This document shows positions 39,420-42,689 of a DNA stretch of 64,000 bases, piece after piece (within the stretch, counting starts at the first letter, position 1; each line of letters starts with the position of its first letter). The DNA lies in NCBI GenBank assembly GCA_049968235.1, contig JBMFRC010000001.1:64001-128000 (forward strand), given 5' to 3'. Under the pieces are notes generated by a model. The model did no database searches. It was not told the origin of the DNA and saw only the letters and a program-made list of their open reading frames with translations. The position numbers were made by a program, and so were the translations under genes. Origin of the DNA: Candidatus Hydrogenedens sp. Its GTDB lineage: Bacteria; Hydrogenedentota; Hydrogenedentia; Hydrogenedentales; Hydrogenedentaceae.

Positions 39420-42400
39420 TTAAGAAGATTCTTTTCCAACATTGAAGAATCTGGCACCTGTAGTATCAATAATATCAGGAGTCACGAAGATTAACAAGCT
39501 GGATTGTTGAACCTCTTTTGATTTTCCACGGAAGAAAAATCCGATTAAAGGAATATCCGCAAGATATGGCATTTTTTGATTGTTATGGATGGTTTTATCT
39601 TGAACTAGACCGCCCAATACCAGAGTATCACCATCATGGACAATAACATTGGTCCATGCTGCCTGCCATGAAGTAGTTGGAAGAATAATTTCTGTTTTTG
39701 TTTCTGTTGTCCCAACAACATTTTTCTGTTCAAATTTCTTTTCTCCAATTCGTGCGCGTACTTCAGGGTTTAACCATAGACGCACCTGGTCATTATCACG
39801 AATTTGTGGAGTTACAGAAAGAGCAATACCGAAGTTGAATGGACTGAATTGGGGTTGTGTAATTACGGATTGTGTTTGAGAACCTCCAAAACCTCCTTCG
39901 GTTACATATACTTCATTATATACTTGCGTGAGATAATATTCTGTCTGGAAATCAGCCACTACTGCTGGTTTTCGGTTCATCGTTGTAACACGTGGAGCGC
40001 TTAACAATTCGGACTCTCTCAAACTATTTAGGTAATCAAATGCTACACTTAACTGGTCACCATCAGCATTATCAATTATTTTGGTTATTAAACTTAAAGT
40101 TGATGCGGCCGCAGCAGGAGCAGGTGGGTTAACTAACCCTGAAATGGTTCCTTGCGTTACTGAATTACGAACTACATTACTACCATCGGGTCGAACATAG
40201 AAAGGAACTTCTTCATCAACACCATCACCATTTATATCGTAACTGTAAGTTTGTTGAGATAGATAATCATTCTGACGAACTCTATTATTTAAATCACTTA
40301 GATTTCCCGTCCAGTTGAAACCTATTTTCTTCAAATCCTCAATACGCACCGTTAAAAATTTTGCTTCAATACTTACCTGTTTGGGGGTAACATCAATCTG
40401 TCCTAAAATCTGTTCAAATTTGTCCAGGTTTGTAGGAGTATTTGTTACGATTAACATATTTGTGGCTTCATTATAAGCAATTTTAGACAACACCTCACCT
40501 GTATAGGGTTCTTTCACAGGAGGGATGGCATCGGCAAGAATCTGTAATCCGGATAATTCCGTTTCTTCAAAACCAGCACCAGCACCTAACTGTGCTGTTC
40601 CCTGGGCACCACCATAACCTGTGGCTGTGGTTCCCGTTGCTAATGTTCCTCTACCCCCCAAACCACCTATGCCGGCACCTGTACCAACTTGAGTAATACC
40701 GATAGGACCTAATTCACCAACTATTTGGTCACTAATGGTAGAAAACATATCCGAAATATTGCTTAATGTTGTAACATCTCTTCCATAACCGCCGCCATAT
40801 CCACCCATTCCACCACCATACATTCCGCCACCATATCCGCCATATCCACCCATTCCACCACCATACATTCCGCCACCATATCCGCCATATCCGCCCATTC
40901 CACCACGATATCCGCCCATTCCACCACCATACATCCCTCCGCCATATCCACCGCCATACATTCCACCGCCATATCCACCACCATACATTCCACCGCCATA
41001 TCCACCACCATATCCGCCACCGCCATACATCCCACCGCCATATCCACCGCCATACATTCCACCGCCATATCCGCCACCATATCCGCCACCGCCATACATC
41101 CCACCGCCATATCCGCCCATTCTACCTCCATAACTTACGCCATATCCGCCACCATAACCTCCACCTACCCCGCCAACACCACCGAATGGATTTCTTAATA
41201 CTAATTTAAATAGACGGTCAGAACCGACATTTCTCATTTCATAAAATCGTGTTTCTAATGCTTCGAAAGTTTCCTGACGGATAATTTCAGGTTTACTAAT
41301 CCATACAAATCCTGGTTGAACAGAGAAATCCAAACCTAAGGGACGGAGTAAAGCTTTTAATGCTTCTCTCAAAGTAACATCTTTAAGACTGATATAAGGA
41401 ACAATACCATTGGATTTTGTTCCATAATATACATCTGGAGATACTGCATAACCTTGTTGTCCGGGAGCACCCAGAGGAGCACCCAAGCCACCACCTTGAA
41501 GGCCACCCGGCGGGGCTCCGCCAGGACCTCCTCTTAAACCAATACCTCCAGGAGCGACACCGGGCCCTGCCATGGGGGGACGTACTCCTCCGGGAGCACC
41601 GAAGGGCTGTCCTGGAGCACCGGGCATACCCATCGCACCGGGTTGGGCTGGCTGGCCTGGTGTTTGTTGAGGTTGCTGTTTAGAAGGAGGTTCTACGGCA
41701 CGATTATCAATAACTATGTTTACACCGTAACTATCAGAAATAAATGTTGTAATTTCACTGATATGAATATCTTCGAACTCGATACTAACGATGGAATCTA
41801 AGGACTTCTCTATTTCACTTACTTTGGTTACGGGAGCGGTTTCTTCTTCTATTTCAGGTACTGTAAATTTATAAGGTTTTATTCCTCGTGCATCGGCACC
41901 TTCAGGAATTTGTTTCGATTTTTCTATAAATTCCCTCACTCGGGCACGGTCTTCTGAAACTTTTCTCTCTGATTCTTTTACAGATTCCTGGTGAAGTTTT
42001 ATTGTTGCTTGATGCAATCCTTCACGAGCTGTATCATTTTTAGGGTCAATCAGTAAAATATTGTTATAAATCTCTACTGCAATATCAAATTTTTGTGCTT
42101 CCATATACCGCTGGGCATCGGAAAGTAATTTTTGAACTCTTTCTTTCTTTAATTCTTCTGCATTTTTTTCGGGCATCTCACCGGGTTGCGCTGGTTGAAA
42201 GGTTTCAAAAGCGGGGAGTGGAGTCATTTCTTTCTTTTCGCCAATAGATAATTGTAGTTGAGCATTACATTTTTGTTGATAAACCTGTGCCTCTTTATGA
42301 TTTGGGTCCAATGCGAGAGCACGATTAAATTCTGTAAGGGCTTCACGATAAAGTTCTTTCTTGTATAGTCCGACACCTCTACGGAAATATGTTTCTGCGT

Positions 42401-42590
42401 TTTCTTCTGTTGCTGTATTTTCCGTAGAAGCATCGGAAAGAACTGCTTCCTGAACAGTCACCGGTGAGACAGGTGGAGATTTCTCTGCTTCCGTTTGTGC
42501 GCGAGCACCATGTGTTGTCATAAGGAATATGACAGTTATCATTGATACGAACATCATAAACCCAAAATAGAATTTTTTCGTGGTACGCAT
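39420..42590 (-). CDS. pilQ: type IV pilus/T2SS-type secretin (PilQ/GspD family) with N-terminal TPR region and Gly/Tyr-rich low-complexity insert
   Basis: The C-terminal secretin domain ends ...PYLADIPLIGFFFRGKSKEVQQSSLLIFVTPDIID. TPR-like repeats sit at the N-terminus (YFRRGVGLYKKELYREALTEFNRALALDPNHKEA). A Pro/Gly-rich linker and then (GGYGGGMY)n follow. The likely start is ATG 42590 (MRTTKKF...), with GGGAGGA 9 nt upstream. The ORF-track start at 42677 adds 29 residues. Confidence 0.85.
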   Translation of the reverse strand: MRTTKKFYFGFMMFVSMITVIFLMTTHGARAQTEAEKSPPVSPVTVQEAVLSDASTENTATEENAETYFRRGVGLYKKELYREALTEFNRALALDPNHKEAQVYQQKCNAQLQLSIGEKKEMTPLPAFETFQPAQPGEMPEKNAEELKKERVQKLLSDAQRYMEAQKFDIAVEIYNNILLIDPKNDTAREGLHQATIKLHQESVKESERKVSEDRARVREFIEKSKQIPEGADARGIKPYKFTVPEIEEETAPVTKVSEIEKSLDSIVSIEFEDIHISEITTFISDSYGVNIVIDNRAVEPPSKQQPQQTPGQPAQPGAMGMPGAPGQPFGAPGGVRPPMAGPGVAPGGIGLRGGPGGAPPGGLQGGGLGAPLGAPGQQGYAVSPDVYYGTKSNGIVPYISLKDVTLREALKALLRPLGLDFSVQPGFVWISKPEIIRQETFEALETRFYEMRNVGSDRLFKLVLRNPFGGVGGVGGGYGGGYGVSYGGRMGGYGGGMYGGGGYGGGYGGGMYGGGYGGGMYGGGGYGGGYGGGMYGGGYGGGMYGGGYGGGMYGGGMGGYRGGMGGYGGYGGGMYGGGMGGYGGYGGGMYGGGMGGYGGGYGRDVTTLSNISDMFSTISDQIVGELGPIGITQVGTGAGIGGLGGRGTLATGTTATGYGGAQGTAQLGAGAGFEETELSGLQILADAIPPVKEPYTGEVLSKIAYNEATNMLIVTNTPTNLDKFEQILGQIDVTPKQVSIEAKFLTVRIEDLKKIGFNWTGNLSDLNNRVRQNDYLSQQTYSYDINGDGVDEEVPFYVRPDGSNVVRNSVTQGTISGLVNPPAPAAAASTLSLITKIIDNADGDQLSVAFDYLNSLRESELLSAPRVTTMNRKPAVVADFQTEYYLTQVYNEVYVTEGGFGGSQTQSVITQPQFSPFNFGIALSVTPQIRDNDQVRLWLNPEVRARIGEKKFEQKNVVGTTETKTEIILPTTSWQAAWTNVIVHDGDTLVLGGLVQDKTIHNNQKMPYLADIPLIGFFFRGKSKEVQQSSLLIFVTPDIIDTTGARFFNVGKESS
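40783..41200 (-). repeat. coding tandem repeat (degenerate 9-24 nt units) encoding (GGYGGGMY)n inside the secretin gene
   Basis: The plus strand reads as repeated CCATATCCACC / CCATACATTCCGCC units over ~420 nt. The out-of-frame ORFs at 40763-41131 and 41417-41683 are by-products of this repeat. Confidence 0.8.
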
Positions 42591-42689
42591 TCGTAATTTT
42601 TCCTCCCGTGGTCTTTTAACCGTTTGGAAGTTGTTATTATATCTATAATTATCTACTAAATGACATTCCTTTTTCATTTTTTTCCTACC

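Follow-up and report, generated by a model that had tools for sequence, protein, structure and literature searches.

In Akkermansia, the PilQ protein Amuc_1098 consists of an N-terminal domain with three tetratricopeptide repeats (TPRs) "resembling the pilotin proteins" fused to a secretin, and its localisation in the outer membrane has been shown (Ottman et al. 2016, PMC4960237). Other secretins bear variable loops in their N domains. In pIV, the N3 ring is 74 Å wide and is the narrowest periplasmic part, and a disordered N3 loop points to the pore centre (PMC8563730). In InvG, a variable N3 loop of ~50 amino acids (aa) is the periplasmic constriction of the empty channel; with the needle present it rearranges and passes outward between N3 and N1, and a second insertion, specific to type III secretion systems, props the gate from below (PMC6155069). 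In PulD, constriction sites are formed by N3, whose loop 288-303 is not resolved in the structure. Here we analysed a 64,000-nucleotide stretch of a contig from Candidatus Hydrogenedens (Hydrogenedentota), hereafter the window, in which the open reading frame (ORF) at 39420..42677 on the minus strand almost certainly encodes a PilQ-type outer-membrane secretin of a type IV pilus-like machine. Neither the secretin itself nor its fusion to TPRs is new, and variable loops in N domains are known as well. However, in the literature on Gly-rich, low-complexity or FG (Phe-Gly) features of secretins we found no description of a long uncharged loop of Gly with aromatic residues or Met, conserved phylum-wide at this site, nor of its analogues in GspD, and nothing relevant was found in the literature on Hydrogenedentes pili. 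The explanation that we consider best overall, at a probability of roughly 45%, combines this identity, the assignment of the Gly-rich module to a loop within the last N domain, and a function of the loops as a compliant collar or plug.

After the Hydrogenedentota family itself, the next-best matches of the window secretin are Amuc_1098-family proteins, at ~28-30% identity. Like these PilQ proteins of Akkermansia and other Verrucomicrobia, the window protein is a TPR-secretin fusion, its N0/STN domain is split by a Pro-rich loop, and an insertion follows strand β1 of the last N domain. The locus is also arranged in the same order, with a PilM-like gene, a gene for a protein of ~320 aa, another for ~170 aa, and the secretin (Amuc_1101, Amuc_1100 of 317 aa, Amuc_1099 and Amuc_1098 in Akkermansia); the 323-aa protein of the window may be the positional counterpart of the immunomodulatory Amuc_1100. 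The Amuc_1098-type architecture is thus present, with TPR and secretin beside an Amuc_1101-type PilM-like gene. The score against NF042912 (Amuc_1098 family) is 142.5 bits, below the cut-off of 750, which the controls P0062, P0065 and P0072 exceed with 815-854 bits. Unlike the window secretin, these three Amuc_1098 members are without a long uncharged Gly-rich tract. The window secretin is a sister type to the Amuc_1098 family. With type IVa PilQ (Vibrio cholerae 6W6M, Pseudomonas aeruginosa 6VE2) it shares the succession of N0, a single N domain and the barrel, as well as the last place in a pilM-led cluster. It differs from type IVa PilQ in having TPRs in place of AMIN and in the long low-complexity loops that interrupt each of its two N domains, and it scores 143.7 bits against TIGR02515, the type IVa PilQ model, below the cut-off of 284.35. 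Likewise, TIGR02517 (GspD of type II secretion) gives 146.9 bits against a cut-off of 351.35, and the N0-N1-N2-N3 series of GspD was not found.

A preliminary description of this DNA, made from the sequence alone, had recognised a secretin with an N-terminal TPR region fused to it, and this was borne out. The ORF listing gives 1085 aa with zero internal stops, Pfam Secretin (PF00263) matches residues 885-1071 (E 1.8e-35, 122.5 bits against a cut-off of 27.5), and a TPR_2/TPR_1 motif lies at 94-127 (E 9e-9). As this is a single uninterrupted ORF, the TPR portion is not a separate gene split off by a stop. The C-terminal secretin domain proposed there also stands, though not its extent of ~300 aa, since the barrel together with the C-terminal half of N1 spans ~375 aa. 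Weak Pfam matches mark Secretin_N (732-767) and STN (429-462). AMIN, whose absence had been suspected, gave no Pfam match in the secretin ORF even at E<=1. By Foldseek, the best match is V. cholerae PilQ 6W6M (1e-20), followed by GspD, P. aeruginosa PilQ and InvG; E values range from 1e-20 to 1e-10 against PilQ, GspD, InvG, RcpA and pIV, and 6W6M is the best match by sequence in the PDB too. The conserved pilM-led cluster and the prepilin-like genes upstream of it point to a type IV pilus-like machine, with this ORF as its PilQ-type secretin.

For the fold we relied on AlphaFold2 (AF2) monomer models, built with a 50-sequence alignment for the window protein and for P0023, a homologue whose module is 27 aa long. 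Residue numbers are counted from the first ATG (42677); the protein has 1056 aa if M30 is the start. LC0, LC1 and LC2 denote the low-complexity regions, and pLDDT is the predicted local distance difference test, the confidence score of the models. The features of the protein are the following.

39420..42677, minus strand: whole ORF, PilQ-type secretin (Pfam, NCBIfam scores, alignment).
42498..42590, minus strand: probable start M30 and predicted type I signal peptide MRTTKKFYFGFMMFVSMITVIFLMTTHGARA, followed by Q (homologue alignment, DNA read, AF2 helix 33-55).
41913..42401, minus strand: TPR-like helical region, residues 93-255 (Pfam TPR_2, AF2 pLDDT 85-92, Foldseek).
41676..41816, minus strand: first half of N0/STN, residues 288-334, β-α-β (AF2, weak phmmer match).
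41436..41675, minus strand: LC0, Pro/Gly/Ala/Gln-rich loop within N0, predicted disordered, residues 335-414 (AF2 pLDDT ~30).
41274..41435, minus strand: second half of N0/STN, residues 415-468, confident from 429 (Pfam STN, AF2).
41190..41270, minus strand: strand β1 of N1 (Secretin_N-type), residues 475-480, and the conserved segment GSDRLFKLVLRN, residues 485-496 (AF2, alignment).
40773..41189, minus strand: LC1, the Gly/Tyr/Met module, residues 497-635 (composition, repeats, AF2 pLDDT 27-33).
40698..40772, minus strand: conserved motif of ~25 aa within the insertion, TTLSNISDMFSTISDQIVGELGPIG, residues 636-660 (alignment).
40554..40697, minus strand: LC2, Gly/Thr/Ala/Gln-rich, predicted disordered, residues 661-708, closing the insertion (AF2, composition).
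40380..40553, minus strand: rest of N1, with α1 709-717, β2 732-736, β3 741-746 and α2 748-761 (Pfam Secretin_N, AF2, phmmer to N3 of PilQ/GspD).
39462..40379, minus strand: secretin double β-barrel and gate, residues 767-1072 (Pfam Secretin, Foldseek).

The mean pLDDT is 58 for the window protein and 62 for P0023, and the folded parts reach 70-92. N0 (288-334 plus 429-468) and N1 (475-480 plus 709-761) are predicted at pLDDT 70-87, the strands and helix of the second N0 half (429-468) at 81-87. In the first half, phmmer aligns residues 281-328 weakly to the N0 region of V. cholerae PilQ (i-E 25, 5 bits). One N domain alone stands between N0 and the barrel, and in both models it is built as β1, a disordered insert, α1, β2, β3 and α2, that is, as a KH-like N domain. 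The disordered stretch covers residues 485-708, ~225 aa, and within it LC1 is predicted at pLDDT 27-33 with no secondary structure. It is therefore likely that N1 is split after β1 by an insertion of ~225 aa, with the Gly/Tyr/Met repeat as its first ~140 aa, forming a disordered loop. The pieces of the insertion are, in order, SDRLFKLVLRN, LC1, the motif of ~25 aa TTLSNISDMFSTISDQIVGE, and LC2. Conservation in at least 90% of homologues was found on both sides of LC1, at L489, K491, V493, L494 and N496 before it and at N640, I641, S642, F645, D650, V653, G654 and E655 after it (motif SNISDLF...VGE). As both ends of the insertion return to one domain of ~60 residues, the module would be a tethered loop, and we rejected a linear spacer across the periplasm for the same reason. 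Two placements in the preliminary description had to be revised according to the models: the Gly/Tyr/Met module, seen there as a free-standing periplasmic region, is predicted to be inserted in the last N domain, and the Pro/Gly/Gln-rich stretch, taken for an interdomain linker, would be a loop between the two halves of N0/STN.

The ~140-aa module of Gly, Tyr and Met reported there was confirmed at residues 497-635. LC1 contains 89 Gly, 26 Tyr and 13 Met in 139 aa (64%, 19% and 9%), with 1 Pro, 1 Phe and Ser and Gln nearly absent, and at 1.66 bits its Shannon entropy is lower than that of the full-length protein (4.03). GGYGGGMY occurs 8 times, among units such as GGGY, GGGMY and GGM, and 17 [G/S]Y[G/S] triplets were counted. 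In the DNA, 40792..41165 form a tandem array whose periods (27, 42, 45 and 69 nucleotides) are all multiples of 3. Identity between its longest units is 96-97%, and both GC content and GC skew peak at this repeat, as expected. LC0 is of another kind, with 26 Gly, 18 Pro, 10 Ala and 9 Gln in residues 335-414.

FG nucleoporins and FUS contain far less Gly, with polar spacers. The resemblance to FUS proposed in the preliminary description is weak: the FUS pattern of Tyr stickers, with Tyr required, in a polar context rich in Ser, Gln and Gly is not that of LC1, with 64% Gly and essentially no Ser or Gln, and in relatives the place of Tyr is taken by Met, Phe or Leu, or the module is nearly all Gly. 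The single Phe of LC1 also sets it apart from FG nucleoporins; the Phe-type homologues with (GGGGQFG)n do formally carry FG dipeptides, and P0013, P0014, P0035 and P0047 have 12-16 FG motifs. Abductin, from the scallop hinge, is a closer compositional analogue of LC1 than FUS. It is a Gly/Met-rich random-coil elastomer with the consensus GGFGGMGGGX and very little Pro, and it works in compression (PMC13052691). LC1 shares with it the richness in Gly and Met, the presence of an aromatic residue (Tyr rather than Phe) and the very low Pro content, a likeness in composition only and not in homology.

The module is a property of the family. A protein search gave ~55 full-length relatives of ~1000 aa with the same TPR and secretin content, and all the named ones belong to Candidatus Hydrogenedentes/Hydrogenedentota. 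In species-representative genomes there are 134 relatives, the best 80 of which are all from Hydrogenedentota metagenome-assembled genomes (MAGs), of which a few bear the label Nitrospirales. The best genome match is Candidatus Hydrogenedens terephthalaticus, with 97% identity over the C-terminal part and 94% overall. Several loci (L003, L007, L009, L011, L015 and others) have a Hydrogenedentota-type gene and synteny, yet are recorded as "uncultured Nitrospirales/Nitrospiraceae bacterium"; such names are probably a labelling problem. A check of conservation had been proposed for the module, and it was found at the same site in 41 of the 41 homologues in which both flanking anchors could be matched, with 27-142 aa (median 110) and 47-75% Gly. 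Across ~50 family members it is present in nearly all, at lengths of 20-147 aa, even though the family has diverged down to 43% identity. To place the family among secretins, N1 and the barrel were searched exhaustively with HMMER against 1.84 billion representatives, with 30,742 secretin matches at E<=1e-3. Among 50%-identity representatives, a strong Gly tract was present in 11 of the 13 long members of the family and in 1 of the 82 next-closest long outgroup secretins. The module had been called very unusual for a secretin. This is right in comparison with model secretins and with the outgroup (1/82) and wrong within Hydrogenedentota, where it is the rule, and there are sporadic analogues in GspD and other secretins.

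What is kept appears to be a composition. Over the 50-sequence alignment, LC1 has 66% Gly, 7.9% Met, 5.9% Tyr and 4.7% Phe, with 0.38% Asp plus Glu and 0.15% Pro, while LC0 has 26% Gly, 17% Pro, 17% Ala and 11% Gln, at 42-99 aa; by sequence, each region holds its own compositional class. The residue that accompanies Gly varies. Close relatives use Met and Tyr, others have (GGGGQF)n, (GGGGNF)n, (GGSSGGF)n or (GGGGY)n (the last one in L006, with no Met), and in deep branches the module is almost all Gly, accompanied by Leu or Gln; one module, that of P0044, is rich in Gly, Thr and Ala. The repeat types GGM, GGGGY, GGGGQF and GGSSGGF are independent, and in each of them hydrophobic or aromatic residues are spaced 3-8 positions apart. 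A comparison of copy number across relatives had also been suggested, and it showed that even 94%-identical proteins differ by whole repeat units and in their ratio of Tyr to Met (26 Tyr and 13 Met in the window protein, Met-rich in Ca. H. terephthalaticus). These patterns point to a rapid turnover of units under compositional constraint: the repeat would evolve by gaining and losing units in frame, so that selection would act on bulk composition and not on sequence.

Variable and disordered loops in the N domain adjacent to the barrel, which face or constrict the channel, are also found in InvG (the N3 variable loop and the β-insertion), PulD/GspD and pIV. Unlike those loops, which have ~15-50 aa of ordinary composition, the present one has ~225 aa with a 139-aa Gly/Tyr/Met repeat. 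Closer to it in composition are P0093, P0088, P0089, P0058, P0096 and P0207, sporadic secretins whose N domain next before the barrel holds a Gly-rich tract with Phe, Met or Tyr. P0093 is a bona fide GspD (549 bits against the cut-off of 351) with a Gly/Phe/Met tract of ~110 aa, P0058 has a poly-Gly/Arg tract, and P0096, a distant secretin, contains GGGYGGGMGGMRGMGGMGGGMYGG. Unlike the window secretin, these cases are scattered over unrelated lineages and their tracts are usually shorter; in the GspD examples the tract follows α1. TPR-secretins from other lineages carry the same two loops, with acidic Gly/Asp/Phe tracts in P0245 and P0146 and a Gly/Trp/Tyr tract in P0207, and one family member, P0112, has an Asn/Tyr-rich tract. 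From these sequences, this clade of secretins seems generally prone to low-complexity insertions at two places, the N0 loop and the loop in the last N domain.

LC1 is a disordered, uncharged, practically Pro-free and Gly-based loop, both ends of which sit on the N domain directly under the barrel and gate, and throughout the phylum a loop of this kind is conserved. Chains so rich in Gly, with stickers of Tyr, Phe or Met, are expected to collapse and to associate with themselves. We tentatively suggest that the LC1 loops might act as a cohesive and compressible gasket, or secondary plug, at the periplasmic mouth, a function that we regard as conceivable but still doubtful. A ring of 12-15 subunits would carry 12-15 LC1 loops with Gly as spacer and Tyr and Met as stickers, and these loops would self-associate into an abductin-like compressible mesh at the mouth. 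Without a pilus, the mesh would occupy or narrow the vestibule; a passing pilus or bulky tip proteins, possibly the giant pilin-like proteins encoded upstream, would squeeze it aside or expel it between the N domains. The conserved 25-aa motif (SNISDLF...VGE), flexibly tethered, could dock onto the ring or onto a partner. A stronger version, which we consider unlikely, is that the loops form a self-healing, nucleoporin- or abductin-like gel in the vestibule, a second permeability barrier based on a material state that would seal around the pilus and tip proteins and close behind them.

By estimate, LC1 adds 148-185 kDa to a 12-15-mer, and 14 copies have a dry volume of ~209,000 Å^3. An empty vestibule of 75 x 100 Å offers ~442,000 Å^3, roughly half of which the 14 copies would fill, and ~159,000 Å^3 would be left around a 60-Å pilus. 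As the volume of LC1 exceeds the space around a pilus, the loops should either lie outside the ring or be a displaceable mass.

Several points weigh against the compliant plug. The whole insertion, taken 14 times, amounts to ~290 kDa and ~350,000 Å^3 dry, too bulky for the lumen alongside a pilus. Whether the loops are placed in the lumen or outside the ring is judged from monomer models and from other secretins, and the confidence of the models is low overall. The cohesiveness and elasticity of LC1 are deduced from its composition, and secretins, which have a gate already, may need no second seal. Module length varies 5-7 fold, and P0112, P0114 and P0044 have lost the module or replaced it by Asn/Tyr-rich, Gly/Thr/Ala-rich or acidic tracts; this variation, and the loss or replacement in a few members, make a strict need for a mesh of Gly and aromatic residues unlikely. 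Docking sites for SDRLFKLVLRN and SNISDLF were sought in the AF2 models of the window protein and P0023, and both segments were unplaced, at pLDDT <50; of the SNISDLF motif, AF2 built a short helix alone, undocked, at 641-645. Finally, by its sequence pattern SDRLFKLVLRN could itself be helix α1, which would move the insertion to the α1-β2 loop, although AF2 and the Verrucomicrobial relatives favour the position between β1 and α1.

Other explanations of the module have to be weighed against this one. That it is an assembly artefact, or that TPR and secretin are separate genes, has a negligible probability. The preliminary description had allowed for the repeat being absent or out of frame, but the presence and the frame of the module are no artefact: ~50 independently assembled homologues (ENA, NCBI, JGI, Logan) have the same fused architecture and an in-frame Gly-rich module at the same anchor-defined site, among them the complete chromosomes L008 OY782877 and L036 OW818658, and the ORF of the window is uninterrupted. 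The repeat does disturb assemblies. At 42 of the 79 species-representative loci the gene is truncated at a contig end, and 30 of those 42 (30 of the 79 contigs) begin inside the Gly-rich module, loci L004, L005, L017-L019, L022, L025 and L027-L030 being among those that break in the repeat; P0055 and L007 are frameshifted within it. Thus, the copy number at 40773..41189 is provisional. A rather unlikely but more serious alternative is that the module is a tolerated product of slippage, a permissive N1 variable loop inflated by replication slippage or unequal recombination and serving as a harmless flexible tether for the SNISDLF motif. The recent tandem array with its 96-97% identical units would agree with this, as would the spread of lengths (20-147 aa), the turnover of units between 94%-identical relatives, the members that have lost or replaced the module, and the quite different tracts (acidic Gly/Asp/Phe, poly-Gly/Arg) that other secretin lineages put in the same loops. 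It is harder to reconcile with the persistence of the Gly-rich tract in nearly all members down to 43% identity, with the exclusion of acidic residues (0.38%) and Pro (0.15%) while LC0 keeps 17% Pro, with the hydrophobic or aromatic residue that independent repeat types bring back at intervals of 3-8 positions, and with the near-absence of such tracts from the nearest outgroup (1 of 82 secretins).

The same volume estimate, by which the loops cannot share the lumen with a pilus, would fit an external collar, in which the loops would exit between the N domains and stick to peptidoglycan, to proteins of the alignment complex or to neighbouring machines, replacing AMIN. For this reading speak the lack of an AMIN match, the G/P/Q-rich periplasmic tract of the PilM-like partner, which could co-associate, and the InvG N3 variable loop, which with a needle in place passes to the outside between N3 and N1 (PMC6155069). 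On the other hand, no known peptidoglycan-binding motif is present, the TPR region is an alternative candidate for anchoring, and the disordered N3 loops of solved secretins point into the pore (PMC8563730); we hold the collar to be improbable. Condensation driven by Tyr as in FUS, clustering secretin monomers or machines, for instance for multimerisation or polar clustering, would be in line with the 26 Tyr, the 17 [G/S]Y[G/S] triplets and the predicted disorder, and yet Tyr is not conserved, as whole sub-lineages have Met only, Phe only or nearly pure Gly. FUS low-complexity domains are of a composition unlike the high-Gly, Ser/Gln-poor one of LC1, which has Gly at 64-66% and, in the window protein, Ser and Gln nearly absent. 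Moreover, a short loop tethered in a ring-forming domain already has its local concentration fixed by ring assembly. We consider this condensation very unlikely, and little more can be said for an ordered glycine structure, such as polyglycine-II bundles or a β-rich or amyloid-like ring, perhaps formed only in the multimer, that would stiffen the N1 ring. Gly-rich repeats with regular aromatic residues can form polyglycine-II sandwiches, with precedents in phage adhesins and antifreeze proteins, and the regular spacing of 3-4 residues in LC1 would suit them. However, two AF2 models give pLDDT 27-33 and no secondary structure, and neither register nor length is conserved, so that such order is highly improbable.

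The start of the protein was also reconsidered. On sequence grounds, the true start is probably M30 (ATG 42590) and not the first ATG (42677). M30 and Q61 are near-invariant across 50 aligned homologues, and in the DNA a Shine-Dalgarno sequence, GGGAGGA at 42607..42601, lies 10 nucleotides 5' of ATG 42590. The upstream peptide K-x-R-E-E (window 42588..42677), "conserved" in homologues, is this Shine-Dalgarno sequence read in frame. The signal peptide ends in HGARA before Q, and there is no Cys in residues 30-61, so the secretin is not a lipoprotein. Two further ORFs lie in the repeat and low-complexity DNA, 40763..41131 (minus strand, 122 aa) and 41417..41683 (plus strand, 88 aa), with sequence such as MEVEWADMAVGCMAV; both were rejected as genes, being alternative-frame shadows of repeat DNA.

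For the TPR region, the preliminary description had pointed to the separate pilotins that supply such repeats in other systems. The fusion stands, but the features that define a pilotin are missing. In the AF2 model the helices run at 93-106, 110-123, 128-145, 173-193 and 197-210, with a long one at 215-255, and of these six (93-145, 173-255) the first pair alone is a statistically significant TPR; we estimate 2-3 TPR-like hairpins from the model. In the PDB, designed consensus TPRs were the sole matches of the region, both by Foldseek and by sequence. PilF, PilW and Tgl share the TPR fold, but they are separate outer-membrane lipoproteins with ~6 TPRs, whereas this region has no lipobox Cys and scores 9.1 bits against TIGR02521 (PilW), whose cut-off is 154. 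Since a lipobox is missing and none of the PilW, BamD and NlpI models is matched specifically, we rejected the classification as a fused pilotin; self-piloting would be a hypothetical role. A separate multi-TPR protein of 313 aa, with a hydrophobic N-terminus and no canonical lipobox, is encoded 5 kb downstream (33303..34244, minus strand).

The secretin gene is the last of a conserved same-strand cluster that encodes an FGE-sulfatase/PEGA lipoprotein, a PilM-like fusion, the 323-aa and 170-aa proteins and the secretin, and it is followed downstream by kdtA and an ABC permease. The order pilM-like, 323-aa, 170-aa and secretin gene is kept in at least 30 Hydrogenedentota loci. The genes between the secretin and the lipoprotein are as follows.

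44180..46270, minus strand: PilM-like protein of 696 aa, fused to a transmembrane segment and a periplasmic C-terminal half (TIGR01175, Pfam PilM_2, synteny).
43212..44183, minus strand: bitopic protein of 323 aa (conserved in 34 loci).
42690..43202, minus strand: bitopic protein of 170 aa with a Pro-rich stretch (conserved in 35 loci).

The PilM-like protein scores 174 bits against TIGR01175 (pilM, cut-off 133), matches Pfam PilM_2 at 5e-47 and reaches 277 bits, below cut-off, with the Amuc_1101 family. Its C-terminal half (44180..45220) has a transmembrane helix, AIYWALSMITLALIMASVIPV, and then a periplasmic part with a G/P/Q-rich stretch, GFPGIGSHGPMVGMGGTGGGGLF. As it is also Gly-rich and disordered there, at least two components of the machine carry such segments. 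The 323-aa and 170-aa proteins gave no family match in Pfam or NCBIfam, including PilN, PilO and PilP models, and no similarity by sequence to PDB chains, including Amuc_1100; by position they are candidates for a PilN/O-like alignment component and a PilP-like protein, respectively. The gene at 46525..47922 (minus strand) encodes three PEGA domains and an FGE-sulfatase domain (GldK/PorK-like at 94 bits, sub-threshold) behind a lipobox-like LVLSC N-terminus, and it lies directly 5' of the pilM-like gene in at least 23 loci. Its product is a candidate for an outer-membrane-anchored accessory or ring protein, or for a real pilotin. Further upstream, the region 47998..63800 (minus strand) encodes a 595-aa protein with a prepilin N-methylation motif, a prepilin-like fragment, GFSILEIVIALAIIAGG, near 63430-63800, and two giant ORFs of 2536 aa (a GspK/PilX-like hydrophobic N-terminus and a weak Lamin-tail match) and 1973 aa (a weak β-helix match). 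The giant ORFs may encode minor pilins of giant size or tip proteins, which would have to travel through the secretin.

In practical terms, the repeat breaks and frameshifts short-read assemblies, and PilQ of Hydrogenedentota is often truncated or split in databases and in automated annotation. If the module is a tolerated slippage product, the finding is a curiosity. If a gel barrier is true, it would have evolved convergently, given the tracts of similar kind in GspD and other secretins that are unrelated. The family offers a natural series of modules, with Tyr and Met, Met only, Phe and Gln, or nearly pure Gly, from 20 to 147 aa. Secretins are the largest gated pores of the bacterial outer membrane, and their tightness with filaments of 6-8 nm is now explained by the folded gate and the N3 constriction only. 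That a whole phylum keeps a disordered, uncharged, Gly-based polymer of ~150-300 kDa per channel beside the gate would suggest that gating or anchoring has a soft-matter component, which is seen in no solved secretin.

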